DNA from: an uncultured Eubacteriales bacterium
Lineage (GTDB): Bacteria > Acidobacteriota > Aminicenantia > Aminicenantales > Aminicenantaceae
NCBI GenBank assembly: GCA_964456985.1
Contig: CAYWDH010000011.1
Span: forward strand, 941-64,940
DNA length: 64,000 bases
Reading direction: 5' to 3'
Shown here: positions 3,784 through 53,054 of the stretch, in pieces
Numbering within the stretch: the first letter of the stretch is position 1
How the letters are laid out: each line of letters starts with the position of its first letter
Position numbers and translations under genes: made by a program
Notes under the pieces: generated by a model
Databases searched by the model: none
What the model saw: the letters and a program-made list of their open reading frames with translations, nothing else
Told to the model about the DNA's origin: nothing

Positions 3784-3912
3784 TATATAGCAGCCAATCA
3801 AAATAAGGAATAGGCAAATCAAATGATTTTTAAGTATTTCCAATTTACCGATCATTCAAGATATGATATAAAAAAGTCTGTAAATAACATGCGTTTCAGA
3901 AGGGAGCATAAA

Positions 3913-16916: not shown

Positions 16917-17112
16917 AACTATTTTCCCCTGGAAATAATGAAAAATGGAGTGTTTTTATATAAGGATATTAAAAAAATTTTAAAATAGAGCCATGGATAT
17001 CACCTCTGGTATCATTGCAGTGATTCAATCTTCGCCTCCTCAAGCTCAGCTCTCCATAGCCGCTGAGGAACAATCCGAGTATATTTAAAACTCTAATTCC
17101 TTACTTCTGGGG

Positions 17113-17230
17113 CAAGGGAAAGCTCTATTCTTACTGAACATCACTAATTCTCATTTCTGTTGGATTTTGTTGACCAGATGTGTTTTTTGTTTGTATTATA
17201 ATCAAAAGAATTGCTTTGAGGGCAGAAATT
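17113..17230 (+). repeat. Promoter-bearing repeat, copy 1 (degenerate, 3-prime truncated)
   Basis: TTGACC at 17170..17175 and TATTAT at 17194..17199, spacer 18 nt. The left flank aagggaaagctctattcttactga parallels copy 2. The leader is kept only to ttgctttgagggcagaaatt. It lies 126 nt upstream of the ATG at 17357. Confidence 0.6.
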
Positions 17231-18427: not shown

Positions 18428-18543
18428 TAAGGGAGATCTCTATTCTTTCTATGCCGCATTAAAAATGATTTTCTGATATTCTCCCTCTTTATGGGTTACT
18501 TGTTGACCGGACGACTTTTTTGTGTGTATTATTAATGGTGAAA
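18428..18543 (+). repeat. Promoter-bearing repeat, copy 2 (left half only)
   Basis: TTGACC at 18503..18508 and TATTAT at 18527..18532, spacer 18 nt. Upstream, DLYSFYAALK..MIF..DIL looks like an internally deleted version of the transposase tail seen at 47302..47484. Similarity stops at taatggtgaa, immediately followed by the RBS aaggag and the ATG at 18558. Confidence 0.7.
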
Positions 18544-19675: not shown

Positions 19676-19738
19676 GAGAGCGGAAATTTGATGGAATGAA
19701 GGGAAAATCATCATCAACAGAAAAACGGTATTCCTATA
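19676..19738 (+). repeat. Promoter-bearing repeat, copy 3 (right / leader half only)
   Basis: gagagcggaaatttgatggaatgaagggaaaatcatcatcaacagaaaaacg is identical over 52 nt (by eye) to copy 4. It ends in attcctat at 19737. No -35/-10 part is present. Confidence 0.75.
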
Positions 19739-22275: not shown

Positions 22276-22389
22276 ATGAGCAAAATTTACCGCCGACGTC
22301 ATCCGGAACGCACCGTGTTTTACAGCGCGCTTTTCTATTATTTTGAGTCATTTCTTCTGGAACATGAAAACCGGTTTGAGAGACACTAA
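22276..22389 (+). pseudogene. N-terminal fragment (37 codons) of an IS91-family transposase gene
   Basis: MSKIYRRRHPERTVFYSALFYYFESFLLEHENRFERH-stop. The RRxxPExTxxY...F pattern is the start of the Zn-binding N-terminal domain of IS91-family (Y2) transposases, recalled from memory. The fragment is fused directly to repeat copy 4. Confidence 0.55.
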
Positions 22390-22390
22390 A

Positions 22391-22524
22391 GTTCTCTTTT
22401 TTATGGGTCACTTGTTGACCGGACGTAATTTTTGTGTGTATTATATTCAATAAAGTCGCTTGGAGAGCGGAAATTTGATGGAATGAAGGGAAAATCATCA
22501 TCAACAGAAAAACGAATTTCCTAT
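22391..22524 (+). repeat. Promoter-bearing repeat, copy 4 (full length)
   Basis: TTGACC at 22415..22420 and TATTAT at 22439..22444, spacer 18 nt. The leader ends in tttcctat at 22524, 11 nt before the ATG at 22536. Confidence 0.8.
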
Positions 22525-40905: not shown

Positions 40906-42239
40906 GGATATCTGACTTAAAAATAAGCATTTCCGGAATAAGAGGAATAGTAGGGCAAAGCCTCACTCCCCAGCTGATCTTGAAGTTCTCGGAAGCCTTT
41001 TCCAGTTTCATTGGAGAGGGAGAAATTGGAGTGGCAAGGGACACGCGGCCTTCCGGAGAAATGCTCAAATACGCTGTTTTCTCCGGCATGCTCTCCTGCG
41101 GTTCGACCCCAATTGATATGGGAATACTGCCCATCCCTTCCCTCCAGTTTTATGTGAAGTCAAAAAAACTGAAAGGCGGAATTTCCATAACCGCTTCACA
41201 CAACCCGGTGGAATGGAATGCCCTTAAGTTCGTAAAAAAAGGAGGTTTTTTCCTCAATCCTTATGAAGCAGAGGAACTCCTGGACTATTATTATCAGGGA
41301 AAATTCAAAAGAGTCCACAAATCAGGTATCATCAAAAAAGAGGCACATCCGTTCAGGATACATGAGAACAAGATCCTTCAATTCATCGATACAGACACGA
41401 TCAGAAGAAAAAAGCTCAAGGTTATAGTTGACCCCTGCGGAGGTGCTGCTTCCCCTTATGTAAAGAACTTCCTCGAAAAACTAGGGGCAGAAGTCATGTG
41501 TATCAACTGCGAACTATCCAACGGATTCCCGAGAAAACCGGAGCCCCTGCCTCAAAACATAGGAGATCTCTGCGAATCCGTGAAAAAACACGGGGCGGAC
41601 ATCGGATTTGCTCAAGATGCGGATGCAGACAGGCTGGCTGTGGTGGATGAAAAGGGACAGCCTATCGGCGAAGAATACACCCTGGCCTTAGCTGTCCGCT
41701 ATTATTTGTCTTACAGGCAGAGATCACCTGTTGTGGTAAACCTCTCCACATCCCGGGTGATAGAGGATATCTCCAGAGAGGAAGGAGTCAAACTCATAAG
41801 AACAAAAGTCGGAGAGATCAATGTTTCAAGAAAAATGCTGGAAACAGGCTCCAAAATAGGGGGAGAAGGAAACGGAGGCATTATAGTTACTGACACGCAT
41901 GCGTGCAGGGACAGCTTCACGGGTATGGCTCTTATCCTGGAATACCTGGCGCGTACGTCAAAAAAAATATCGCAGCTTAAACAAGAGCTTCCTAAGTACA
42001 AGATGATAAAGGAAAAGGTCAAAGCCGGTTTCAGCGACAGGAAAAGGATCATAAACCTTGTGAAGTCAAAATTCAATAAAGGCGAGGTAAATACCGAAGA
42101 CGGACTGAGGATCGACTACCCCGAGTTCTGGCTCCATGTCAGGCCCTCAAATACAGAACCCGTCATGAGGATCATCATCGAAGGCAGGGAAGACAAGCTC
42201 ATTGAATCCATATATTCGGATATAAAGGAGAAATTATAA
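40902..42239 (+). CDS. Phosphoglucosamine / phosphomannomutase-family enzyme (canonical active site)
   Basis: 445 aa. The TTG start overlaps the upstream stop (TTGA). Motifs are canonical: GISITASHNP, AQDADADRLAVV and GGEGNGG. Confidence 0.8.
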   Translation: MRISDLKISISGIRGIVGQSLTPQLILKFSEAFSSFIGEGEIGVARDTRPSGEMLKYAVFSGMLSCGSTPIDMGILPIPSLQFYVKSKKLKGGISITASHNPVEWNALKFVKKGGFFLNPYEAEELLDYYYQGKFKRVHKSGIIKKEAHPFRIHENKILQFIDTDTIRRKKLKVIVDPCGGAASPYVKNFLEKLGAEVMCINCELSNGFPRKPEPLPQNIGDLCESVKKHGADIGFAQDADADRLAVVDEKGQPIGEEYTLALAVRYYLSYRQRSPVVVNLSTSRVIEDISREEGVKLIRTKVGEINVSRKMLETGSKIGGEGNGGIIVTDTHACRDSFTGMALILEYLARTSKKISQLKQELPKYKMIKEKVKAGFSDRKRIINLVKSKFNKGEVNTEDGLRIDYPEFWLHVRPSNTEPVMRIIIEGREDKLIESIYSDIKEKL

Positions 42240-42240
42240 C

Positions 42241-42352
42241 CTGTTGACCTGAGATGTTTTTGGTGTGTATTATATTCGATAAAGTCGCTTAGAGGGCGGA
42301 AATCTGATGAAATTAAGTAAAAATCAGCAGCAACAGAAAAACGAAATTCCTT
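42241..42352 (+). repeat. Promoter-bearing repeat, copy 5 (5-prime truncated, divergent leader)
   Basis: It starts 1 nt after the mutase stop codon. TTGACC at 42244..42249 and TATTAT at 42268..42273, spacer 18 nt. The leader, ...gtcgcttagagggcggaaatctgatgaaattaagtaaaaatcagcagcaacagaaaaacgaaattcct, ends 16 nt before the ATG at 42369. Confidence 0.75.
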
Positions 42353-42368
42353 TTATCAACTCATACCT

Positions 42369-43526
42369 ATGAATTCATCCTTTAGTGATCTAAATATAGA
42401 CTTTGTTGCGGTTTTCAATTTTGTGGGGGCTATTACAGGATATTTTTTTTCATTGATTCTTCTAGGGATTAAGGGAAAAAAGAGTATTGCAAGCAAGTAT
42501 CTGGCGCTGTTAATCTTTTCTTATTCCACGTTTTTAGTGGGATCCATTCTCTATCAAACGAATTATCATCTCGTGCACACCTACCTGATCGGTATTTTCC
42601 CTCCTTTCTATTTTCTCATCGGACCTTTCTTGTATCTGTATATGTTATCCTTAGTATACAAAGAATTTTCATTCAAAAAGATATATCTGCTCCATTTCGT
42701 CCCCTTTATTCTCCAAATACTCTTCAATGTCCCCATATACTTAAAAAGCTCTGAAGAAAAATTTGATTTTTATCTAAAGGGATTGATCGATGGCCCTGAT
42801 CTGTTCCGTGTGCTGATTATTTGTGCCAGGATAATATATCTTTTTGTATATTTAATTCTTACGGCGCGCCTCTTGAGGACACATCAGGTACAGATCGAAA
42901 ATAGTTATTCACGATTAGAAGGTAGACGCTTGAGGTGGATTCGAACTCTTATGATCGGACTCATGATTGATGCAGTGCTATATGCTATCACAATTGTTTC
43001 AAGAATCTCAGATTCCAATGGATTCTATTCTTTGGTCGACATTTCGAATATCACGGCGCCATGCATCATCCTCTATATGTGTTACAAAGGTCTTACCCAA
43101 CCCGATCTACATGTTGAGAATATGCTTGGTGCTGTTAAAAATCGCTACCATTATTCCCGCTTGGACAGCGACAAATCAGAAGAATTCCTGGAACATATCC
43201 TCAATTTTATGGAGGAATCAAAATCATATCTGAACAATGAGTTCACCATCAAGCAGCTTTCCGAGGAGACGGCCATCCCATCACGCTATATTTCTCAAGT
43301 TATTAATGAGCGCTTGGATCGGAATTTTTACGAATTCATTAATGATTATAGAATTGATGAAGTCAAAAAAAGATTTCTGGATCCTCACTACCAAGGCTCC
43401 ACAATCTTAGATATTGCATTTGATTCAGGATTCAATACGAAATCCACGTTTAATGCCGCTTTCAAAAAGAGAGAGGGAATCACACCTTCCACGTATCGAA
43501 AAAATTTGAAAAAATATTTAGTCTGA
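42369..43526 (+). CDS. Membrane-anchored AraC-family transcriptional regulator
   Basis: 385 aa. The N-terminal 240 aa or so contain multiple hydrophobic helices. The C-terminal AraC HTH reads IKQLSEETAIPSRYISQVINERL...ILDIAFDSGFNTKSTFNAAFKKREGITPSTYRK. Confidence 0.8.
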   Translation: MNSSFSDLNIDFVAVFNFVGAITGYFFSLILLGIKGKKSIASKYLALLIFSYSTFLVGSILYQTNYHLVHTYLIGIFPPFYFLIGPFLYLYMLSLVYKEFSFKKIYLLHFVPFILQILFNVPIYLKSSEEKFDFYLKGLIDGPDLFRVLIICARIIYLFVYLILTARLLRTHQVQIENSYSRLEGRRLRWIRTLMIGLMIDAVLYAITIVSRISDSNGFYSLVDISNITAPCIILYMCYKGLTQPDLHVENMLGAVKNRYHYSRLDSDKSEEFLEHILNFMEESKSYLNNEFTIKQLSEETAIPSRYISQVINERLDRNFYEFINDYRIDEVKKRFLDPHYQGSTILDIAFDSGFNTKSTFNAAFKKREGITPSTYRKNLKKYLV

Positions 43527-43542
43527 ATGGATCCATTCAGAC
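43521..43542. other. Perfect 22-bp palindrome overlapping the AraC stop codon, followed by a C9 tract (43547..43555)
   Basis: gtctgaatggatccattcagac is its own reverse complement. The C9 run then follows, then 9 nt, then TATAAT at 43565..43570, which is 30 nt before the ATG at 43600. Confidence 0.7.
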
Positions 43543-43599
43543 GACACCCCCCCCCATTATGTCTTATAATTCCACATATCATGTTGAAGGAAGACAGAT

Positions 43600-45639
43600 A
43601 TGAAGTATTTCACATATTCCCATTATCGCAAACTTCCAATGTTATGGATTCTGGCGTTATACGTTTTTTCTCCTTGGGGCTACACTGATAAAGCTCCGAG
43701 GTGGACTCCTGAAGAAATCATTAAAACCAAGACGATCCTGGATTTGGCGATTTCTCCAAATGGTCAGCAGGCAGTCTATGTCGTTTCTCAAGCCGTATTT
43801 CAGAAAGATGTTCCGACCTTTCAAAGAAGACTTTATCTCAGCCGAGCCGGTCAAATGCAAAGTGTCCCCCTCACACCAGCCGACCAGACGGCATTATCTC
43901 CAAAGTGGTCTCCGGATGGGAAGTGGATAACGTATGTTTCACCCGGAAACACCGCGTTGAATTTATGGATCATCCCTGCTTCCGGGGGGACTCCGAGACA
44001 ATTGACCCGATTTTCCCAGGGAATTCGTGATCATGTGTGGTCCCCGGATGGCCTGCGCATAGCCATCGTGGCTCCAGGGGATCTGAGTCCCGATGTTCTG
44101 GATTCGTATGACGTCGATAATCAATCTGAGATCCAAGGGAATCACATATGGCTGCTATCTATGGACCAAACCGAAACCGGGAAGAATCCTATTCGTCAGC
44201 TCACTCGGGGAGATTTTACCGTTCTTTTAGGTTTGGACTGGTCTCCGGATGGGAAATCCATCGCTTTTTCGCATGCTCCGATCGAGGAAACCGGGTTTGT
44301 AGGAGGAGAAGCCAGATACCTCTGTGACATCTCTATTTTGGATCTCTCTTCCGGACACAGAAAGATCCTTGTTGATTCAAATGCATCAGAATTCAGGCCG
44401 ATTTTTTCGCCTGATGGAAAATGGCTAGCCTACTCGGCGACCGAAGATCCTCCTAACAGAGCCCATTCTCAAGATTTGATCAGAATTAACATCAAGACAG
44501 GAGAGAAAATCGGCTTTCACCATTCGTTCGACAGGCTGGTGGACTATTTCGCGAGCCTTTGGAAACCGTTGGGCTGGTCAGCTGACGGTCAGGAATTTTT
44601 TATCATGGAGTGCCGGGGGACTATCAGCCGGATTTCAGCTTTACCCGTATCCGGAAGCCCTCCGAGAGATATCGATTTGGGCGATAGGCTGATTTGGCCT
44701 GCCTGCTTAAACCGGCATAAAACATATTTTGGATTTGTGGGGCAAACATCATCCAAACCCGAGGAGGTTTTTCTGACCCCAGTCAATAACTTTAATCCGC
44801 AGAAAATAAGCCATCTCCACCAGGATCTACCTGATTGGCCCTTAGGAGAAACCAGAGTCGTCAGCTGGGAATCTATAGACGGGACAACCATAGAAGGATT
44901 GCTTTCTCTCCCAGTCGGATATGAATCGGGACGTAAATATCCACTCATCCTGATTGTGCATGGAGGACCCGCCGCAGCTCATCTGCAACAGTACACGGCC
45001 GCATCGTCTATGGGGAACAATCTGATGGTCTCGGCCTTCACTTCCAAAGGCTATCTTGTCTTCAGGCCGAATCCGCGCGGATCGGCCGGATATGGCCCCC
45101 GGTTTCGATTCGATCTTATATCCAGGATGGGAGATCTGGATTACCAGGATGTGATGGCCGGTATCCATTTTTTGATCAAGGAGGGAATCGCAGATCCTGC
45201 CAAAATGGGAGTTATCGGGGTCAGTTACGGAGGGTATCTTACTGGATGCATTATCTCTAAGACAAATCGTTTCAAAGCTGCAGTGATCATATGCGGCGAT
45301 TCGGATCTTCTAAGCTCATACGGAACGAGTGATATTCCCGGTATGATTTCGGGGTATATGGGATATGAGCCCTGGGAAAACTATCTAGGCTACCTAGAGG
45401 CATCACCGGTCTATTATGTTAGCAAAATCGAAACACCTGTGTTGATCCAACATGGCGAAAAAGACGAAAGAGTCCATGTCACCCAAGCAAAAGAGTTCTC
45501 GACATATCTTAAACGTTTCGGGAGAGTCCCGGTCCGATTGGTGATCTATCCAAATATGGGGCACAGAATTACTGATCCTGGAAGGAATATCCTTATAGTC
45601 AATAATTCCCTGACATGGTTTGCCAAGTATGTTAAATAG
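43600..45639 (+). CDS. S9-family serine peptidase (prolyl oligopeptidase / dipeptidyl aminopeptidase type)
   Basis: 679 aa. The N-terminal propeller has PD40 blades (WSPDGKWITY, WSPDGLRIAI, WSPDGKSIAF, FSPDGKWLAY). The C-terminal alpha/beta hydrolase has the nucleophile elbow GVSYGGY, then GEKDERV and NMGHR. Confidence 0.85.
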   Translation: MKYFTYSHYRKLPMLWILALYVFSPWGYTDKAPRWTPEEIIKTKTILDLAISPNGQQAVYVVSQAVFQKDVPTFQRRLYLSRAGQMQSVPLTPADQTALSPKWSPDGKWITYVSPGNTALNLWIIPASGGTPRQLTRFSQGIRDHVWSPDGLRIAIVAPGDLSPDVLDSYDVDNQSEIQGNHIWLLSMDQTETGKNPIRQLTRGDFTVLLGLDWSPDGKSIAFSHAPIEETGFVGGEARYLCDISILDLSSGHRKILVDSNASEFRPIFSPDGKWLAYSATEDPPNRAHSQDLIRINIKTGEKIGFHHSFDRLVDYFASLWKPLGWSADGQEFFIMECRGTISRISALPVSGSPPRDIDLGDRLIWPACLNRHKTYFGFVGQTSSKPEEVFLTPVNNFNPQKISHLHQDLPDWPLGETRVVSWESIDGTTIEGLLSLPVGYESGRKYPLILIVHGGPAAAHLQQYTAASSMGNNLMVSAFTSKGYLVFRPNPRGSAGYGPRFRFDLISRMGDLDYQDVMAGIHFLIKEGIADPAKMGVIGVSYGGYLTGCIISKTNRFKAAVIICGDSDLLSSYGTSDIPGMISGYMGYEPWENYLGYLEASPVYYVSKIETPVLIQHGEKDERVHVTQAKEFSTYLKRFGRVPVRLVIYPNMGHRITDPGRNILIVNNSLTWFAKYVK

Positions 45640-45706
45640 CTGAGGCCTCATTCCTCCAACTTCTGCTTATAAAAACAATGAACTCAAAATAATTCATAAA
45701 AAATAA

Positions 45707-45715
45707 TGATATAAT
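45707..45715 (+). promoter_or_regulatory. Extended -10 element (TGaTATAAT) upstream of the M20 peptidase gene
   Basis: TG at 45707..45708 and TATAAT at 45710..45715, 34 nt before the ATG at 45749. No good -35 element. Confidence 0.3.
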
Positions 45716-45748
45716 ACAGGAAAAAAATGAAAGAGGCAGGAGGCAAAA

Positions 45749-47302
45749 ATGAAGAAATCGGCGACAACTGCAATTCTTATGATATTACTGGGCATTGGTA
45801 TATTCAGCAGTTTGCTTAGTGCAGATGAAGGACTGCTCCAGGCAATTCGAAACTATCGCAAGTCCCATGAACACCAGATAATCCGCGAGTTCACGGATCT
45901 TTTATCCATCCCCAATGTCTCGTCTGACCGGGAGAACATTCGCAAAAACGCCGTATTCATCCAAAAGATGCTAACAAAACGAGGAATCGACGCCCGTATC
46001 TTGGAGACAGCGGGTAACCCCGTGGTCTTCGGGGAACTGAAGGTGCCGGATGCGGCCAACACACTTCTTATTTATATCCACTACGACGGCCAGCCTGTCG
46101 ATCCCTCAAAATGGACGGATACACAGCCTTTCCAGCCAGCCCTGCGCCCTGGGAAATTACTGCCCGGGACGAGAGAACCCAATCCCATCCCGTTTCCGGA
46201 TGAAGGCGAACCCTATGATGAAAACTGGCGCATTTATGCCCGAGGTTCGAGCGATGATCGTGCTCCAATCATCGGATACATGACAGCTCTGGATGCTCTC
46301 CGGGCCGCTCAAATTCCGCTGAAAAACAACCTCAAGTTCATCCTGGAGGGCGAGGAGGAGGCCGGATCGATTAACCTCCGCCCATTCCTGGAAAAGCACC
46401 GGGATTTGCTGGATTGCGACGTTCTCTTCATGTGCGATGGTCCGGCTTATTATTCAGGCGATCCCACCCTGTTTTTCGGAGTACGCGGCATTACAAGCCT
46501 GGAAATTACGCTCTATGGTCCCAACACCAGTGTTCACAGCGGGCATTACGGCAACTGGATCCCCAATCCAGGAATCCGGCTGGCCCATCTGCTGGCCTCG
46601 ATGCGTGATCCCGATAGCAACGTGAAGATTCGGGGATGGTATGACTCCTGTTTACCGCTGTCAGAATCAGAGATCGAGGCTGTCAAGGCTATCCCTTCCT
46701 ATGAGCGGCAAATAATGCTCAACTACGGTTTTGCCCAACCGGAATCCAAATGGGAAAGTCTGATGATGGCAATCCAGTATCCGGCCCTCAACCTCAACGG
46801 TCTGAAAAGCGGCTGGACCGGAGCCCAACAGAGGACCATTGTGCCTCCTACTGCCACCGCTAGCCTAGACATCCGCTTGGTCAAGGGGAATGATCCCGAT
46901 CATATGGTGGGACTGGTCATCGATCACATCCGGCAGCAGGGGTATCATGTGGTGAAAAGGGATCCGGACACAGAAACAAGAATGAAGTATCCGTTGATTG
47001 CCCGGGTCGTACATAAAGAAAGCGGGTACAGGGCCTCAAGAACTCCCCTGGACCATCCCATCTCGCAAGCTGTGATAGCTGCCATATCCAAGCACAGCGA
47101 AAAACCGCCCGTACTGTTGCCATCCCTGGGGGGATCCCTTCCTATCTACTTGTTCAGTGATCTGCTTAAAGTCCCGGTCATCGGAGTTCCGATTGCCAAC
47201 CATGACAACAATCAGCATCAACCGGACGAGAACCTGCGCATCGGCCACCTCTGGACCGGAATCGAGACCTATGCCGCCCTGATAATGATGAGCGGGAAGT
47301 AA
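45749..47302 (+). CDS. M20-family metallopeptidase (dipeptidase-like), secreted
   Basis: 517 aa with a signal peptide. M20 motifs are present: LLIYIHYDGQPVD, ARGSSDDRAP and EGEEEAGS. Confidence 0.8.
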   Translation: MKKSATTAILMILLGIGIFSSLLSADEGLLQAIRNYRKSHEHQIIREFTDLLSIPNVSSDRENIRKNAVFIQKMLTKRGIDARILETAGNPVVFGELKVPDAANTLLIYIHYDGQPVDPSKWTDTQPFQPALRPGKLLPGTREPNPIPFPDEGEPYDENWRIYARGSSDDRAPIIGYMTALDALRAAQIPLKNNLKFILEGEEEAGSINLRPFLEKHRDLLDCDVLFMCDGPAYYSGDPTLFFGVRGITSLEITLYGPNTSVHSGHYGNWIPNPGIRLAHLLASMRDPDSNVKIRGWYDSCLPLSESEIEAVKAIPSYERQIMLNYGFAQPESKWESLMMAIQYPALNLNGLKSGWTGAQQRTIVPPTATASLDIRLVKGNDPDHMVGLVIDHIRQQGYHVVKRDPDTETRMKYPLIARVVHKESGYRASRTPLDHPISQAVIAAISKHSEKPPVLLPSLGGSLPIYLFSDLLKVPVIGVPIANHDNNQHQPDENLRIGHLWTGIETYAALIMMSGK

Positions 47303-47484
47303 TCCGCTATTATGGTTTCTATTCCAATGCTCATAAGAGGAAGGTACGTAAGACAGGGGCTCAACCTTCTCATCCCCCAATCATTGAAGATAGCCCGTCC
47401 TATGTGCCTGTCAAGGGTTGGGCTGAGATGATAAAGAAAGTCTATGAGTCTGATATTCTCTCTTTTTTGTGGGTTACTTGTTGA
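47302..47484 (+). pseudogene. C-terminal fragment (60 codons) of an IS91-family (Y2) transposase gene, running into repeat copy 6
   Basis: IRYYGFYSNAHKRKVRKTGAQPSHPPIIEDSPSYVPVKGWAEMIKKVYESDILSFLWVTC-stop. The RYYGxYSN...W(A)xxIKKVYE(V)D(P)L pattern matches the C-terminal region of IS91-family transposases as I recall it. The frame starts on the last base of the M20 stop codon. Its last 33 nt are the first 33 nt of the repeat core. Confidence 0.6.
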
Positions 47485-47585
47485 CCGGATGTATTTTTTG
47501 TGTGTATTATCAATGATTAGGTCGCTTTGAGGGCGGAAATTTGATGAAACGGAGGGAAAATCAACAACAACAGAAAAAAGACTAT
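47452..47585 (+). repeat. Promoter-bearing repeat, copy 6 (full length, contiguous with the transposase tail)
   Basis: TTGACC at 47481..47486 and TATTAT at 47505..47510, spacer 18 nt. The leader gtcgctttgagggcggaaatttgatgaaacggagggaaaatcaacaacaacagaaaaaag ends 21 nt before the ATG at 47607. Confidence 0.8.
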
Positions 47586-47606
47586 TATTTTTATTAAAAA
47601 TAAAAA

Positions 47607-48503
47607 ATGAACTCAATAAAACTCAAATATAATCCAATAAATTATCTTTTATCTGCCAGACAGCTGGCCTGGGTAAAATATCAGACACTTGTTCGAATCC
47701 TCCAAAAACCTATAGACGATCCGGATGTTTCCCTCTGGCATAAAAAGCGGGATTCATCGGCAATAGTGGCAAACTTAAAGGCAAAACAGGGAGATTCAGG
47801 ATGGTTCCCCTCGTTGCCCTGGATGCATATCCATACTTACTATTTTCATCGGTTGATTGAGATGGGCTATGGATTAGAGGATGCAACTGTGAAGAAGGCC
47901 GCAGACAATCTTTTGAATTACCAATTACCGAATGGCGGATACATGCATCCAACCGGTCCGAGAGTAAATACACCAAATCCACAAGAAGGATGGGCTGCCT
48001 GTGTAACTGGTTATACTACCAAGGCACTAATGGATATTGGCTTAACTGATCATCCAAAAGTAAAAAAATCGCTAAATATTTTGTTAAACGGACAAAATTT
48101 TGATGGCGGTTGGATTTGCCAACGGGGCGGTCCTTGTCTTGATGAAAGTAGTTGTATCATCTCTGGATCACCGTGGGTATTTGCATGTCTTGTACAAGCG
48201 CACCTGATTGACGCCAATAGCTCAGTAACGAAAAAAGCAGTCAGGATGTTTAATAAGTTCAAAAAAGAAATTATAAATCATGGCTATATGCAGGACAGAT
48301 GTTATCGCTGTGACGAATCATTATTGATACCACCGTTATGTGGTTTAGGACATTCAGAACGAAATTCCCTTCTCAGTGACTTGATTGAATCGCTTATCAA
48401 AAAGCAACAACCGGATGGTTCCTGGCTGTTCAGGGATAAACGTTCGGCCTGGTATACAATTGAAGCTGTTGTTTCACTTCAGGCTGCGGGTATTAATATT
48501 TAA
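47607..48503 (+). CDS. Prenyltransferase / squalene-cyclase-repeat (alpha-alpha toroid) protein
   Basis: 298 aa with repeated QW-like units (NYQLPNGGY, NGQNFDGGW, KKQQPDGSW). Confidence 0.6.
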   Translation: MNSIKLKYNPINYLLSARQLAWVKYQTLVRILQKPIDDPDVSLWHKKRDSSAIVANLKAKQGDSGWFPSLPWMHIHTYYFHRLIEMGYGLEDATVKKAADNLLNYQLPNGGYMHPTGPRVNTPNPQEGWAACVTGYTTKALMDIGLTDHPKVKKSLNILLNGQNFDGGWICQRGGPCLDESSCIISGSPWVFACLVQAHLIDANSSVTKKAVRMFNKFKKEIINHGYMQDRCYRCDESLLIPPLCGLGHSERNSLLSDLIESLIKKQQPDGSWLFRDKRSAWYTIEAVVSLQAAGINI

Positions 48504-48546
48504 CCTGAGATTTTAAAACAAATCATACAAAAACAAATTCGGTTAT

Positions 48547-48645
48547 AAGGATGGGCTGATTTTTTTGATATTCTCTCTTTTTTGTGGGTTACTTGTTGAC
48601 CGGACGTGTTTTTTGTTTGTATTATTAATGGTGAAGTTGCTTTTC
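48547..48645 (+). repeat. Promoter-bearing repeat, copy 7 (left half, leader truncated)
   Basis: It starts with aaggatgggctga, a deleted form of the ..KGWAE.. transposase tail. TTGACC at 48596..48601 and TATTAT at 48620..48625, spacer 18 nt. Similarity stops after gtgaagttgctttt, 50 nt before the ATG at 48696. Confidence 0.75.
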
Positions 48646-48695
48646 AGCACATCTAAAACCATAAAGGCTCAGGAAAGTTTTAAAAGAGGAGAACT

Positions 48696-49394
48696 ATGAC
48701 AAAACATATAGGCATCATTGCATGCAGTGCTGAAGGAGCAGCCCTCTGTTATCGTACCATCTGTGCTGAATCACCTCAATATATGGGAGAGCACTTCCAT
48801 CCTGAAATCACCATACATACGCACTCTCTCGGGGATTATATGGTCCATATTCGGGAAGGGAACTGGACCGGAGTGGCTTCACTCATGCTCTCGTCTGTCC
48901 GAAAGGTTGCCAAATCAGGAGCTGATTTTGCCATCTGCCCCGACAACACAATTCATCAGGCTTACGACCTTTTCATTAAAGATTCTCCGATTCCCTGGTT
49001 GCACATTGCGGATACCGTTGGACAGAACGCGCGGAAAAAAGGATACGGCAGACTGGGCATTATCGGAACGAAATACCTTATGACCGGGCCTGTATATCCG
49101 AAAATCCTGGAGGCCATAGGCATATCCTGCGACATCCCTAAGCAAGAAGATCGGGAGCGGATTGACACAATTATCTTTAGTGAACTGGTTAAGGGAATTT
49201 TTACAGAAGAATCCAGAGGTTTTGTCAATAAAGTCATCCAGAGGCTAAGAGGTAGAGGTTGTGAAGCCGTCGTCTTGGGGTGTACGGAGATTCCTTTGCT
49301 GGTGGACCCCAAAGACTGTCCCCTTCCAACCCTTGATTCAACCCGTCTCCTAGCGAAAGCAGCTATAAAAGAAGCATTGAAAATGGACATGTGA
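48696..49394 (+). CDS. Asp/Glu-racemase-family protein (YgeA / aspartate racemase-like)
   Basis: 232 aa. Family blocks are present: HIGIIACSAEGAALCY, FAICPDNTIHQ (first Cys region, one residue longer than the CTNTMH type), GIIGTKYLM and VLGCTEIPLL. Confidence 0.7.
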   Translation: MTKHIGIIACSAEGAALCYRTICAESPQYMGEHFHPEITIHTHSLGDYMVHIREGNWTGVASLMLSSVRKVAKSGADFAICPDNTIHQAYDLFIKDSPIPWLHIADTVGQNARKKGYGRLGIIGTKYLMTGPVYPKILEAIGISCDIPKQEDRERIDTIIFSELVKGIFTEESRGFVNKVIQRLRGRGCEAVVLGCTEIPLLVDPKDCPLPTLDSTRLLAKAAIKEALKMDM

Positions 49395-49482
49395 TACCAC
49401 TGTTCCGGTTATGGAATGGGAAAACCGTCCAAGGGAGGGGGTTCGTCCATGAAGGCGTCAGCGCTTATCTTTAGGAAATTTC

Positions 49483-49621
49483 GATATTCTCTCTTTTTTG
49501 TGGGTTACTTGTTGACCGGATGTATTTTTTGTGTGTATTATTAATGGCGAAGCTGCTTTGAGGGCGGAAATTTGATGAAACGGAGGGAAAATCACAATCA
49601 ACAGAAAAAAGAAATCCCTAT
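49483..49621 (+). repeat. Promoter-bearing repeat, copy 8 (full length)
   Basis: TTGACC at 49512..49517 and TATTAT at 49536..49541, spacer 18 nt. The leader ends in atccctat at 49621, 38 nt before the ATG at 49660. The upstream segment 49395..49482 reads ..SGYGMGKPSKGG..ASALIFRKF.. and may be a further decayed transposase tail. Confidence 0.8.
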
Positions 49622-49659
49622 CTTTTAAATATACTTTAGCCATGTAATCGGAGGGGACA

Positions 49660-52600
49660 ATGACTATTGAGTGCCCGAAGTGTAGAGCCAAAAATCCCGA
49701 TGATACAGCTTTCTGCGGGAAATGCGGGACAAAACTCGACCTGGATGTAAGTCCCACAAAAACCATAGAAACACCAACCGAAGAACTCACTCGAAGAAGC
49801 ATCTTTGCCGGAAGATATGAGATCATCGAAGAGCTCGGCAAGGGAGGGATGGGCAGGGTCTATCGAGTAGAGGATAAAAAGACAAAAGAAGAAATCGCCT
49901 TAAAGCTGATCAAACCTGAGATAGCCACAGATAAAAAGACGATCGAAAGATTCCGGAATGAACTGACGACCGCCCGGAAAATAAGGCATAAAAATGTCTG
50001 TGGTATGTTCGATCTGGGAGAAGAAAAAGGGCTTCATTTCATCACCATGGAGTATATCTCAGGGCAGGATTTGAAGGGACTGATCAAGCAGTCAGCCCCA
50101 CTAAGCGTGGTCAGGACAATCATGGTCGCAAAACAGATCTGCGAAGGTTTAATTGAAGCCCATAAGCTGGGCATCGTGCACCGAGACCTCAAGCCATCCA
50201 ACATCATGATCGACAAAGAGGGCGACATCAAGATAATGGACTTTGGAATCGCACGTTATTTAAAGGGAAAAGGCATCACTGGCGCTGGAGTGATGATCGG
50301 AACACCCGAGTACATGAGCCCTGAGCAGGTAGAAGCCAAGGAGGTTGATCAGCGTTCTGACATCTACTCCCTCGGAATCATCCTGTATGAAATGACGACA
50401 GGCAAACTGCCCTTCGAGGCGGATACACCTTTTGCTGTAGGAGTAAAACAAAAAAGTGAAGAACCAGAGAATCCTAAGGATATCAATCCACAGATTCCTG
50501 AAGACCTCAGCCGAGTGATACTGAAGTGTTTGAATAAAGACAAGGGGAATCGATATCAGAATGCGGGAGAGGTTCAGTCAGAACTGGAGAATATTGAGAA
50601 AAACATACCCTCCACACAACGTGAAATTTCCAAGAAAAAACCCCTTACATCTAGAGAGATAACTGTGACATTGGGATTGAGGAGGCTCCTCATCCCTGCT
50701 TTTGTCATTATTGCCCTAGTCATTGCCGCAGTAGCTATCTGGCAGCTTCTTCCCCAAAAAAAAGCAGTAGCTACTCAAAAGATTGAGAACTCTGTGGCGG
50801 TCATCAGCTTTGAAAATCAGACAGGAGATAAAGCCTACGACTATCTGGGAAAAGCCATCCCTAGTCTCTTGATCACAAACCTTGAGAATACGGGGTATCT
50901 TTACGTGGCCACATGGGAGCGAATGCTTGATCTCCTTAATCAAATGGGGGAAAAAAACGTGCAGGTCATCGACAGGAATTTGGGTTTTGATCTCTGCCAG
51001 AGGGAAGGAATAGAAGCTATTGTTCTTGGTAGCTTCATCAAAATGGGAGATACGTTTGCTACTGATGTGAAAGTTCTGGATGTGGATACGATGAAACTTC
51101 TGACGAGTGCAAGCTCACAGGGTGAAGGAGTTGACAGTATTATAAAGACCCAAATTAATAAATTGAGTGAGGATATATCACAAGGGATAGGCATAGCCAG
51201 ACAGAAAATTGATGCAACTCAATTGCAGATCGCTGAGGTTACAACAACTTCAATGGAAGCTTATAACCATTTTTTAAAAGGGAAAGAGAACTATGATCTC
51301 TGGAATCATATTGATGCCCAGCGATTTCTTGAGAAGGCTGTTGAGCTTGATCCGACTTTTGCTATAGCCTACTACTATCTTGCTCTAACACACCATCGGC
51401 TGGGTGATAATAAATCGAGAGATGAGACTTTAGAGAAAGCTAAGGCATTTTCCGAGAAGGCGTCAGAGAAAGAGAGACTTTATATTGAAGCAGAATATGC
51501 TCTTACTATTGAAAATAATCGAGAAAAAAGATTTCGTATCCTAACACAAATGGAAAAAAAATATCCCAAAGAAAAACGAGTTAAGCATGATTTGGGTGTG
51601 TATTACCAAAGCATAAATCGGCATAAAGGAATAGAACTGTTTAAAGAAGCACTGGAACTCGATCCCAGCTATGGACTTGTCATTAATCAACTTGGGTACG
51701 CATATACTGGTTTGGATGATTACGAGAAGGCGATCGAATGTTTCAAGAAGTATGCCTTTCTTTATCCTAGAGATGCTAATCCACTTGACTCGTGGGCTGA
51801 AGCCTATTTCAAAATGGGAAGGCTTGACGAATCCATAGCGAAATACAAAGAAGCGTTAATAGTGAATCCCGACTTTTATAACGCTTACTGGAAGATAGGA
51901 TACATCTATGCTTTAAAGGAAAATTACTCTCAAGCAATGAACTGGGTTAATCAAGATATTTCTATAGCCCCCACTCTATCCACAAAAGCCGATGGTGGGT
52001 TTATTTGGAAAGGATTCTATTATGCATGGCTAGGGAGATTTGACGAAGCCCTCATCGAACTTAAGAGAGTTGTAGACATATGGAAGAAGGTGGAAAATAA
52101 AGGCTGGGAATCCGTAACGGAGAGGATAATAGCATGGATATACTTTGACAGAGGAGAGCTTGAATCTTGCAGAAAGCATTTTAAAAAAGGATTCGATGCT
52201 TACATAAAAAATCTACCAGAGGCCATATCATATATTACTTTAGCAAATAGCACTTATCTTGGGTTAGCGGAATTAAAGGAAGGGCGAATCGATTCTGCAA
52301 AATCAAGACTGTCTAAGATGAAATCTCTTCTACCTAAAATAAACAATAAATATGCACTTTTCTATTATGACATACTAAACGGAGAAGTGTTGCTTGCAGA
52401 AGGGTCCGTAGATAAGGCAATCGCTGTCTGCGAAAACACAAGAACTTTAGGAACGCCAGCTATTACACATAGTATAAGGACAATAATGTATAGCATTCCC
52501 TTCCTTAATGATGCGTTGGCGAGGGCCTATCTACAAAAGGAGGAGTTGGATAAAGCCATTGCCGAATACCAACAGCTGATTACCTTTGATCCAAACAGTG

Positions 52601-52785
52601 AAGAGAGGCGTCTTATTCATCCTAAACTTCATTATAGGTTAGCCAAATTGTATGAAGAGAAAGGCTTGAGAGGCAAAGCCAGGGCAGAGTACGAGAAATT
52701 CCTCGACCTGTGGAAAGATGCTGATCCAGGCCTCTCCGAGGTTGAGGATGCGAGGAAGCGGCTGGCGGGATTGAAGGGCAGCTGA
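49660..52785 (+). CDS. Ser/Thr protein kinase with N-terminal zinc ribbon, one TM segment, periplasmic domain and TPR repeats
   Basis: 1041 aa. It has a zinc ribbon (CPKCRAKNPDDTAFCGKCG). Hanks kinase motifs are present: GKGGMGRVY, ALKLI, HRDLKPSN, DFG and GTPEYMSPE. A TM helix (LLIPAFVIIALVIAAVAIW) follows. Then come AVISFENQTGDKAYDYLGKAIP and multiple TPR units. Confidence 0.85.
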   Translation: MTIECPKCRAKNPDDTAFCGKCGTKLDLDVSPTKTIETPTEELTRRSIFAGRYEIIEELGKGGMGRVYRVEDKKTKEEIALKLIKPEIATDKKTIERFRNELTTARKIRHKNVCGMFDLGEEKGLHFITMEYISGQDLKGLIKQSAPLSVVRTIMVAKQICEGLIEAHKLGIVHRDLKPSNIMIDKEGDIKIMDFGIARYLKGKGITGAGVMIGTPEYMSPEQVEAKEVDQRSDIYSLGIILYEMTTGKLPFEADTPFAVGVKQKSEEPENPKDINPQIPEDLSRVILKCLNKDKGNRYQNAGEVQSELENIEKNIPSTQREISKKKPLTSREITVTLGLRRLLIPAFVIIALVIAAVAIWQLLPQKKAVATQKIENSVAVISFENQTGDKAYDYLGKAIPSLLITNLENTGYLYVATWERMLDLLNQMGEKNVQVIDRNLGFDLCQREGIEAIVLGSFIKMGDTFATDVKVLDVDTMKLLTSASSQGEGVDSIIKTQINKLSEDISQGIGIARQKIDATQLQIAEVTTTSMEAYNHFLKGKENYDLWNHIDAQRFLEKAVELDPTFAIAYYYLALTHHRLGDNKSRDETLEKAKAFSEKASEKERLYIEAEYALTIENNREKRFRILTQMEKKYPKEKRVKHDLGVYYQSINRHKGIELFKEALELDPSYGLVINQLGYAYTGLDDYEKAIECFKKYAFLYPRDANPLDSWAEAYFKMGRLDESIAKYKEALIVNPDFYNAYWKIGYIYALKENYSQAMNWVNQDISIAPTLSTKADGGFIWKGFYYAWLGRFDEALIELKRVVDIWKKVENKGWESVTERIIAWIYFDRGELESCRKHFKKGFDAYIKNLPEAISYITLANSTYLGLAELKEGRIDSAKSRLSKMKSLLPKINNKYALFYYDILNGEVLLAEGSVDKAIAVCENTRTLGTPAITHSIRTIMYSIPFLNDALARAYLQKEELDKAIAEYQQLITFDPNSEERRLIHPKLHYRLAKLYEEKGLRGKARAEYEKFLDLWKDADPGLSEVEDARKRLAGLKGS

Positions 52786-52864
52786 TTTCCCGGGCAGCGC
52801 AGTTGGTGAGCCCAATCTGAGCTCAATCGATTTTTTGTCCCATTGAACACGTTTAGTATTAATT

Positions 52865-53012
52865 AAAGGATGGGCTGAATTTTCTGATATTCTCTCTTTC
52901 TTGTGGGTTACTTGTTGACCGGACGTGTTTTTTGTGTGTATTATGCTTAGAGGGCGAAAAATTTGATGAAACGGAGGGGAAATCACAATCAACAAAAAAA
53001 CCAAATTCCTAT
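52865..53012 (+). repeat. Promoter-bearing repeat, copy 9 (full length with a small internal deletion after the -10)
   Basis: It starts with aaaggatgggctga. TTGACC at 52915..52920 and TATTAT at 52939..52944, spacer 18 nt. The leader ends in aattcctat at 53012, 42 nt before the GTG at 53055. Confidence 0.8.
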
Positions 53013-53054
53013 CCTTACGAATCCATCTATTCCGAAATAAAGGAGCAACTGTAA

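Follow-up and report, generated by a model that had tools for sequence, protein, structure and literature searches.

Introduction

The closest analogue of the repeats described here is the oriIS region of ISCR1 with its POUT promoters, PCR1-1 and PCR1-2. This region is 232 bp long and contains two working POUT promoters (PMC6218425). Both ISCR1 and the elements of our window, by which we mean the whole 64 000-nucleotide stretch of DNA that was analysed, belong to the IS91 superfamily of rolling-circle elements, and in both, about 215–230 bp of non-coding DNA separate the transposase stop codon from the oriIS end and carry outward-directed sigma-70-type promoters, which are putative in the present case. 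In both, unrelated genes lie just downstream in the same orientation. However, the hosts of ISCR1 are clinical Gammaproteobacteria and its downstream genes are resistance genes, whereas the window comes from an uncultured sediment Aminicenantes genome and the downstream genes are metabolic or regulatory. ISCR1 has two weak promoters, whereas a single near-consensus promoter is predicted here, and, unlike ISCR1, most of the copies here are solo tails from which the transposase gene has been deleted.

IS91, IS801, and IS1294 (PMC13181058) resemble the present elements in having an N-terminal zinc-binding domain together with a Y2_Tnp HUH domain, left and right ends that are unlike each other, and an oriIS downstream of tnpA, as well as in showing no evident target duplication and frequent truncated, one-ended derivatives. 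By the target rule of the IS91 family, the tetranucleotide abutting oriIS has T at position 2 and is CTTG or GTTC (PMC13181058); here it is CTTN, with T again at position 2. The present elements differ from these three in having one conserved Tyr, in GKYMIRP, no orf121, and a longer tail with a conserved putative promoter.

Non-autonomous derivatives such as MITEs and the Correia elements of Neisseria are, like the copies here, short, dispersed, intergenic repeats derived from insertion sequences, and they are able to supply promoters to neighbouring genes. MITEs keep both termini, whereas in the copies here the right (oriIS) terminus alone is preserved. Even copy 4, the sole copy with the start of the gene, lacks the left terminus, unlike MITEs.

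Results

Repeat copies and transposase fragments in the window

The repeat core, TTGTTGACC...TATTAT, is present in eight copies, at 17167, 18500, 22412, 42241, 47478, 48593, 49509, and 52912, all on the + strand, and a ninth locus, at 19676 on the + strand, is a leader-only piece. It is highly probable that the frame at 47302–47484 is a non-functional remnant of an insertion sequence of the IS91 family (HUH, rolling-circle), of a clade common in Candidatus Aminicenantes, and that the non-coding tail of this element is the dispersed repeat. The features are as follows.

16996..17088, + strand: two fused transposase fragments, residues 155–166 (DITSGIIAVIQS) and 399–419 (IQSSPPQAQLSIAAEEQSEYI), with the true stop codon
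17089..17242, + strand: tail copy 1, beginning where the genuine stop codon ends; 77% identity over 124 nt, E 3e-21
18429..18543, + strand: tail copy 2, the promoter half alone, broken about 10 nt past the -10 box
19676..19737, + strand: solo terminal module without promoter, GAGAGCGGAAATTTG...GGTATTCCTAT
22276..22386, + strand: transposase fragment, residues 1–37, start codon kept; 78% identity to P0297, E 2e-14 (tblastn)
22392..22524, + strand: tail copy 4, ending ...GAATTTCCTAT, then GTTG
42241..42359, + strand: tail copy 5, truncated on the 5' side exactly at the -35 box
47299..47460, + strand: transposase pseudogene fragment, corresponding to residues 311–364 of IS91-family transposases of 419–423 aa
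47449..47590, + strand: tail copy 6, non-coding 3' terminal region; 76% identity to the L007 tail, E 9e-22
47481–47486, 47505–47510, and 47529–47590, + strand: parts of copy 6, respectively the -35 box TTGACC, the -10 box TATTAT, and the terminal module
48547..48640, + strand: tail copy 7, opening with a 13-nt relic of the KGWAE codons; broken about 20 nt past the -10 box
49479..49629, + strand: tail copy 8, complete, from CGATATTCTC to ...AAATCCCTAT, then CTTT; E 3e-22
52866..53013, + strand: tail copy 9, opening with the KGWAE relic and ending ...AAATTCCTATC, then CTTA

The nine copies are 3'-terminal pieces of the element that vary in their 5' truncations and internal deletions, and none can encode a transposase. 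The 5' UTR is absent from every one of them.

Relationship to IS91-family transposases

The frames at 47302–47484 and 22276–22389 translate as IRYYGFYSNAHKRKVRKTGAQPSHPPIIEDSPSYVPVKGWAEMIKKVYESDILSFLWVTC and MSKIYRRRHPERTVFYSALFYYFESFLLEHENRFERH, each followed by a stop codon, exactly as given in a preliminary description of this DNA made from the sequence alone. Similarity of these fragments to IS91-family transposases, one of two points on which that description had offered itself for refutation, proved significant with both phmmer and tblastn. The 60-aa peptide of 47302–47484 gave 219 matches at E ≤ 1e-3 in a phmmer search of 1.84e9 representative proteins, the best at 1.7e-20. When full-length relatives were compared with the window by tblastn, 47299–47460 showed 61–76% identity to them, with E from 3e-16 to 2e-22 (2e-22 with P0307, 4e-22 with P0295), and the matching stretch reads ...IRYYG.YSNAH...KGWAEMIKKVYE.D.L. 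A direct Pfam scan of the two short peptides gave no match; both fall on the margins of the domain models or outside them. The full-length homologues (P0256, P0295, P0297, P0307, and more than 100 others) carry PF14319 (Zn_Tnp_IS91) and PF04986 (Y2_Tnp), and the full-length relatives are named by NCBI as IS91-family transposases of Candidatus Aminicenantes.

The 128 full-length relatives form a distinct group of 419–423 aa and are 64–100% identical to P0256. Among them, FHPHLHF (the HxHxH motif) and one Tyr, in GKYMIRP, are conserved in at least 98%, and the Cys clusters are conserved as well, while a second Tyr four residues away is not conserved. The single conserved Tyr may correspond to the Y1 state of the ISCRs. 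Since the window copies lack the whole HUH/Tyr region, the local element is catalytically dead.

Structure of the intact element and its tail

L007, with a transposase gene at 3001–4260, is the only intact element of the window's own tail type that was found. An intact homologue whose 3' end fails to align with the repeat was the other point offered for refutation. In L007 the two do align: blastn of the 3' end yielded 10 HSPs in the window, every one on the + strand and the strongest at E 3e-22, and the approximately 215 nt after the stop codon of L007 match all nine window loci. Measured from the stop codon, the -35 box lies at +100, the -10 box at +124, the terminal module at +148, and the end at about +213. 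Thus, the earlier proposal that the repeat is the 3' end of the transposase gene plus the element terminus holds in that the repeat is the 3' end of the element, but its core is non-coding rather than coding. Both copy 1 and L007 run unbroken from the last codons through the stop codon into the tail.

Identical P0295 genes at separate sites (L008, L009, L012) diverge exactly at the tail end, and P0307 genes at separate sites (L013, L014) do likewise. Counted from the stop codon, copies of the same gene part at 196–215 nt, just past ...AATTCC(C)TAT..., and so the tail is part of the mobile unit. In metagenomic tails of the window type, transposase fragments of varying extent lie directly upstream in 19 of 23, none of them intact. 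The deletion endpoints differ in every copy. The intact tail of about 215 nt consists of a spacer, a putative sigma-70-like outward promoter (TTGACC-N18-TATTAT), and a terminal module of about 85 nt ending in AAATTCCTAT(C), which is probably the oriIS end.

The last 50 nt or so are bracketed by a putative subterminal inverted repeat, GGAAATT...AATTTCC, for which 82% of cells are paired, with one compensatory pair; 41 of 500 shuffles reach the same pairing. RNAalifold predicted no structure for the terminal module, and an Rfam search of the whole window gave no match. A small hairpin (CGC..GCG) before GAGGGCGG was considered as the nick site and rejected, as its 5' arm varies without compensation among 23 metagenomic copies. 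A conserved leader peptide (MKRRENQQQQKK...) was likewise rejected; it is broken in copies 3 and 4 and out of frame in sister subfamilies. The corresponding ORF is open in most copies of the window type, and in no window copy is it fused to the downstream gene. Scanning genome contigs for the core pattern turned up a single related MAG contig (L001/L002), the window's own genome not being among the matches; three further matches, within GC-rich genes of Acidimicrobiia, were discarded as chance.

The remnant at 47302–47484

The frame opens on the last base of the stop codon of the M20 peptidase gene, as had been described. The transposase homology reaches back one further codon, to 47299, and the TAA with which the M20 gene closes therefore sits within transposase-derived sequence. 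About 53 codons of the C-terminal region of the transposase survive, and a deletion has fused their 5' edge to the end of that gene. On the other side, an internal loss of about 248 nt has brought codon ~364 next to tail position +69. The closing ILSFLWVTC of the peptide is thus tail sequence read through, and the TGA that ends the frame is part of TTGACC. The preliminary description took this TGA, at the -35 box, for the ancestral stop codon. Intact genes contradict this, since their frame continues for about 55 codons past VYExDPL (CPxCGG..MRIVSFIEDHKV...) and about 100 nt separate their true stop codon from the -35 box downstream of it. The terminal module of copy 6 has a diverged end, and the gene at 47607 begins 17 nt downstream of the copy.

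Other copies

Copy 1 has TTGACC and TATTAT at 17170–17199 and a truncated terminal module. The gene pieces beside it (residues 155–166 and 399–419) had not been reported earlier. In copy 4, the tail abuts the N-terminal fragment through a deletion of about 1.2 kb. This copy had been likened to a miniature element that retains both gene ends; codons 1–37 are indeed kept, but the left terminus is absent. The similarity ends at the ATG at 22276, 20 nt before which a MacB-like gene ends, and the DNA 5' of this ATG resembles the 5' UTR of no intact element and contains no left terminus. Copy 4 is therefore not a two-ended (MITE-like) miniature element.

The opening of copies 7 and 9, aaggatgggctga, matches GGATGGGCTGAGATGATAAAGAAGG (GWAEMIKK) at the start of L002, in agreement with its earlier reading as KGWAEM codons. 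By contrast, the peptides read at copy 2 (DLYSFYAALK..MIF) and before copy 8 (ASALIFRKF) both lie in non-coding tail or flank. Copy 5 begins 1 nt past the stop codon of a phosphohexomutase gene, and a relic of the 3' end of the mutase gene follows the CTTA after copy 9. Simple insertion at an internal CTTN was considered as the origin of the split in copy 2/3 and of the truncation of copy 7 and was rejected, since the junction sequences do not fit.

Target site

The terminal TAT(C) directly abuts CTTN in copies 8 and 9 of the window and in L002, L041, L031, L038, L040, L044, L045, L047 (twice), and L048, and it abuts GTTG or GTTT in window copy 4 and L030. Loose ends in related populations show CTTT, CTTC, and ATTT after the tail end. 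The exceptions to CTTN or xTTx are AGAT, CGGA, and CATC. The tetranucleotide that usually abuts the tail end, CTTN, thus matches the target rule of IS91-type elements.

Promoter-like site and downstream genes

The sequence TTGAC(C/T), 16–18 nt, (TG)GATAAT/TATGAT/TATTAT is found in L007, L008, L013, L019, and L023, and in weaker form in L017. These promoter-like hexamers hold a fixed position in every subfamily examined, though the rest of the tail has diverged. The tail sites are among the top-scoring matches between 41.5 and 54 kb, a region with 25 promoter-like matches versus 22.7 in shuffles, that is, with no excess. We infer from the consensus matches that the tail carries a conserved, active sigma-70-like promoter. 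It would fire outward and, in the manner of the POUT promoters of ISCR1, would now contribute to transcription of the gene downstream of each copy. A search among RNA-seq runs found none that contains this stretch.

In the window, a co-oriented gene starts 6–140 nt downstream of each tail (9 of 9), and these genes are functionally unrelated. Outside the window, tails are co-oriented with the next gene about as often as opposed to it (roughly 8 cases to 9, with ORFs called crudely), and a general co-orientation of tails and downstream genes was therefore rejected. The 9 of 9 seen here may thus be a product of local history and not of selection for promoter use.

Discussion

The interpretation at the core of the preliminary description, that the repeats are decayed ends of an IS91-type element, is supported by these results, and the repeat family is a case of normal transposon decay, for which ISCR1 offers a known parallel.

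What survives best among other readings is that the solo oriIS tails are still substrates for one-ended rolling-circle transposition by a transposase provided in trans, and that the gene units between them, each made up of one or more genes followed by a transposase remnant and a tail, are serially captured, ISCR-like modules that are still moving. We consider this rather unlikely. In its favour, oriIS alone suffices for one-ended transposition in the IS91 family, with upstream DNA carried along (PMC13181058). Upstream, L009 and L010 are identical over 1543 nt, a stretch with PadR and a beta-lactamase-like gene, yet they diverge exactly at the tail end, and more complete transposase sequence occurs in the same metagenomes (loose ends). 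Three units of the window, 42240–43959, 47608–48516, and 49686–52820, are absent or reordered in related marsh populations, with the new joints at tail ends. Furthermore, the block 42241–53018 splits a mutase–nagB junction, the mutase relic lying after tail 9. However, loss of units is explained equally well by homologous recombination between tails that are 75–95% identical, and the Logan contigs, which are short, represent mixed populations. Most copy structures are explained by internal deletions rather than by contiguous upstream capture, the split and truncated copies do not fit simple CTTN insertion, and an identical unit at two unrelated loci was not found.

A second reading holds that a regulatory module of the host, made up of a promoter and a leader, was there before the transposon and is the repeat, and that IS91-like elements insert beside it, which would make the gene fragments incidental; this is already largely refuted and very improbable. 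The placement of all nine copies 6–140 nt upstream of co-oriented genes and the near-consensus -35 and -10 hexamers in the core would suit it, and with no such element in Rfam, a novel leader was conceivable beforehand. Yet the homologous tail of sister subfamilies moves together with the transposase gene to different sites, and the continuity from last codons into tail in copy 1 and L007, together with deletion endpoints that differ in every copy, also argues against it, as do the functionally unrelated downstream genes and the lack of conserved structure in the terminal module. A convergent gene lies ahead of roughly half of the tails found in other genomes.

A third reading, that short ORFs of AT-rich intergenic DNA merely happen to resemble transposases, for which one could cite the absent Pfam matches and peptide lengths of only 37 and 60 aa, is refuted by the phmmer, blastn, and tblastn matches and can be practically dismissed, given E 1.7e-20 in a library of 1.84e9 proteins, 61–78% identity to full-length transposases at collinear positions, and a DNA-level alignment that runs on into the tail.

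Decay of an IS91-type element therefore accounts for a conspicuous repeat family, which is transposon debris and neither a novel regulatory RNA nor a novel type of element. The anatomy is corrected as well: the repeat core is the non-coding, oriIS-side tail, not coding sequence. For annotation, the tails and their pseudo-ORFs of 20–60 aa are best masked. An outward promoter in the oriIS region is known experimentally only for ISCR1, in clinical Proteobacteria; here a predicted site is conserved in an environmental IS91 clade. If these promoters are active, transposon-derived promoters drive a sizeable share of the transcription units in this stretch.

The tails also mark places where strains differ in gene content. 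The copies would act as points of homology or breakage, between which gene units would be lost, gained, and reordered among strains. More speculatively, and with the odds against it, solo oriIS tails may constitute an ISCR-like platform for capture and expression in an uncultured phylum, each promoting its downstream gene and serving as a one-ended rolling-circle origin or a recombination joint; the 10.8-kb block that splits the nagA–mutase/nagB cluster may be an example. If this is true, ordinary metabolic and regulatory units are inserted, deleted, and reordered in this way between close strains of Aminicenantes.

Origin of the fragments and repeats

Both peptide translations in the preliminary description were reproduced exactly, and the repeat family that it described is real. 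Eight copies in the window share the core ...CTGATATTCTC..GTGGGTTACTTGTTGACCGGAYGT..TTTTTGTGTGTATTAT, and the piece at 19676 consists of the downstream module only, GAGRGCGGAAATTTGATG...CAACAGAAAAA..AAATTCCTAT. All copies lie on the + strand, and a + strand gene starts 6-140 nt downstream of each. These genes are functionally unrelated to one another, and the whole window gave no Rfam match.

Genes downstream of the repeats
+ strand, beta-propeller protein
+ strand, secreted protein, function unknown
+ strand, MacB-like permease
+ strand, DUF5695 protein
+ strand, AraC regulator
+ strand, prenyltransferase-like protein
+ strand, Asp/Glu racemase
+ strand, Ser/Thr kinase with TPR repeats
53055, + strand, gene labelled nagB

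Neither short peptide has a direct Pfam match. In a phmmer search of 1.84 billion representative proteins, the 60-aa peptide had 219 matches (best E 1.7e-20), the longer of which contain Y2_Tnp (PF04986) and Zn_Tnp_IS91 (PF14319). Two word-indexed searches yielded over a thousand relatives; the full-length ones have 419-423 aa and both domains, and where named they are called 'IS91 family transposase [Candidatus Aminicenantes bacterium]'. When full-length members were compared with the window by tblastn, four pieces were found.

Transposase pieces in the window
47299-47460, residues 311-364, 61-76% identity, E down to 2e-22
22276-22386, residues 1-37, 78% identity, E 2e-14
17023-17088, residues 399-419 and the stop codon, 76% identity, E 4e-4
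16996-17031, residues 155-166, 11/12 residues

The phmmer and tblastn matches to members with these domains show that the fragments come from an IS91-family transposase, as had been claimed. Among 128 aligned full-length members, the Cys clusters, FHPHLHF, a single Tyr (GKYMIRP), RYYG.Y.NAHRGK, KGWAEMI.KVY, and CP.CG are conserved. The window fragment keeps the last three, CP.CG in part only, and has no catalytic motif of this alignment. The TAA ending the M20 peptidase gene sits inside transposase-derived sequence (47299-47302; GTA ATC encodes V I of MIRYYG), so the present stop codon of the peptidase came from the remnant.

The tail as the 3' end of the element

The nearest intact gene with flanks is locus L007 (GCA_046483545.1, protein P0297). 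Its stop codon is followed directly by a spacer of about 100 nt (...GGGGATCTCTATTCTTT...CTGATATTCTCC...), then by TTGACT-N18-TATGAT at +100 and +124 from the stop, and by the last part of the tail, GAGGGCGGATATTTGATGAAATGGAG...CAACCGAAAAACCAAATTCCTTCTAT, from +148 to about +213. With the L007 3' end as query, blastn gave 10 HSPs in the window (E down to 3e-22); they are all on the + strand and together cover all 9 repeat loci. In the multiple alignment, no break separates the final codons, the stop, and the beginning of the tail in either copy 1 or L007. The repeat is therefore the 3' end of the element. A homologous tail of 196-215 nt lies behind the intact genes of P0295, P0307, P0276, and P0320, four other proteins of this clade with 70-80% identity to the full-length transposase P0256; these tails have TTGAC(C/T), 16 nt, TGTGATAAT or TGTGATATG, then ...CAAAAACGAAATTCCTAT. 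For P0269, which is 88% identical to P0256, the promoter-like match in the tail is weaker.

Where one protein is encoded at several sites (L008, L009, L012; L013, L014), the copies stay identical up to the end of the tail and differ immediately beyond it. Thus, the tail belongs to the mobile unit, rather than to host sequence beside which the IS happens to sit. The core interpretation of the repeat as the end of an IS91-family element is supported, with anatomical corrections.

Conservation ends at ...AAATTCCTAT or ...TATC in window, genome, and metagenome copies, and the bases that follow are mostly CTTN (CTTA, CTTC, CTTT) or GTTN. In IS91-family elements, oriIS (the element end downstream of the transposase gene) adjoins a target tetranucleotide whose second base is T, without target duplication (CTTG, GTTC, GTCC; PMC13181058), and the bases found here fit this rule. 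A weakly supported, imperfect inverted repeat (GGAAATT...AATTTCC) surrounds the last ~50 nt, with one compensatory change.

Anatomy and decay of the copies

Intact genes have about 55 more codons after VYE.DPL (CP.CGG.MRIVSFIEDHKVIDKIITHL...PPPP...EYI*). Relative to L007, the copy at 47302-47484 lacks about 248 nt, joining codon ~364 to tail position +69, so its ILSFLWVTC-stop is tail DNA read in frame, and the apparent stop codon is a TGA that belongs to TTGACC, the -35 hexamer. This stretch is a transposase remnant, as proposed, whose final residues are not coding; in the ancestral gene, about 100 nt separated the true stop codon from the -35 hexamer downstream of it. The peptides read in copy 2 and before copy 8 fall, by alignment, in non-coding tail or flank. 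In copy 4, codon 37 is joined to the tail by a deletion of about 1.2 kb. There is no 5' UTR, and similarity to intact elements goes no further upstream than the ATG, which lies 20 nt behind the MacB-like gene. Copy 4 is not a two-ended miniature element.

With the terminal module as anchor, 23 further window-type tails were found in metagenomes. Transposase fragments lie directly upstream in 19 of them, none with an intact gene, and the residues kept vary (e.g. 273-419, 315-419, 402-419, 1-74 + 152-258 + 346-419). One orthologous site (L034, L042, L039) shows three distinct decay states. In database ORFs from other samples (P0003, P0005, P0126), C-terminal segments follow straight on the N-terminus (MAGIYRQRHPE...). 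Loss of internal sequence is therefore a general fate in this IS clade and is not confined to the window's genome.

A breakpoint recurs in the stretch that separates the -10 box from the GAGGGCGG terminal module (18543/19676 and 48640 in the window; L049; L021/L022, ~130 nt past the stop). The terminal module is missing from copy 7 and from L021 and L022, whose genes are intact, and the promoter is missing from L049 and 19676. A complete 1.1-kb gene lies between copy 2 and the module that stands alone at 19676. A hairpin was considered for this breakpoint and rejected, and no mechanism was found.

A MAG contig labelled 'uncultured Eubacteriales' (L001/L002, CAZSZS010000218.1) has two window-type tails with transposase fragments and begins inside one of them. 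Its label may be wrong, or the element may also occur outside Aminicenantes.

Strain variation at the tails

The whole region is spanned by Logan contigs of one sediment run, which is probably the source sample. In related marsh populations, the repeat-bounded segments 42240-43959, 47608-48516, and 49686-52820 are absent or rare, and the genes flanking them are present at 94-99% identity. In the marsh contigs, 42239 is joined to 47419, and another joint leads from a tail end into the S9 peptidase gene at 43960. In a further one, tail 8 runs on into DNA upstream of nagB (53020), and 32 additional mutase-like nt are present. The tails are therefore sites where gene content changes between strains. 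The change may come about by recombination between tails or by one-ended transposition.

The phosphohexomutase gene ends just before copy 5, and its last 36 nt (42204-42239; 12 codons including the stop) are ~83% identical to 53019-53054, after tail 9. The 10.8-kb repeat-bounded block 42241-53018 therefore sits inside the former mutase-nagB junction.

Contigs from the same metagenomes extend the fragment to SHIPDKGQVM upstream and IDPLICPKCG downstream; thus, more complete transposase copies exist nearby, not necessarily in the window's genome. The transposase genes at L009 and L010 (and L008, L011, L012) are identical. Upstream of them, L009 and L010 have the same DNA over at least 1543 nt (PadR and a beta-lactamase-like gene), but the right flanks are of three kinds, each starting exactly at the tail end. 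This pattern fits either upstream gene capture through one-ended transposition or a rearrangement involving the oriIS end.

Predicted outward promoter

The promoter-like sites of the tails are among the best such matches in 41.5-54 kb, where the total number of matches is not above that in shuffles. The local copies are unable to transpose alone and retain a predicted near-consensus sigma-70-type outward promoter. Because the promoter position is kept across subfamilies whose tails have otherwise diverged, it may have a role in the active element. Speculatively, it could drive transcription across the joint of oriIS and terIS (the left end) in a circular intermediate.

An experimentally established parallel is ISCR1, whose 232-bp oriIS region has two outward promoters (POUT) by which the expression of co-oriented downstream genes is raised 13- to 15-fold (PMC6218425). 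By analogy, we infer that the window tails may help to transcribe the genes that directly follow them. A search for RNA runs containing the locus found none. Tail and downstream gene are co-oriented in 9/9 window copies, which could reflect selection, local copy propagation, or a strand bias that the copies share through single-strand transposition. In other genomes, by a simple ORF heuristic at the metagenomic loci, the tail faces convergent and co-oriented genes about equally (about 8 to 9, a crude call).

The tail also has a short ORF (MKRRENQQQQKK.IP...), whose start lies 15 nt behind GAGGG. This ORF continues in frame into the gene downstream in L001, where it contributes the charged N-region to a plausible signal peptide, and it shares the frame of the next gene in L007. 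Every window copy of the ORF ends before the gene is reached.

Short ORF of the tail
Window, 47544-47597
Window, 49575-49628
Window, 52966-53040
Window, 42307-42372
L001, from 1956
L007, from 4424

Among the papers searched, none links Aminicenantes and IS91. The sequence comparisons point to an IS91-family clade of Aminicenantes that is decaying to solo oriIS-side tails with an ISCR1-like predicted outward promoter, and the aspect worth following is their putative role as promoters and in module shuffling.
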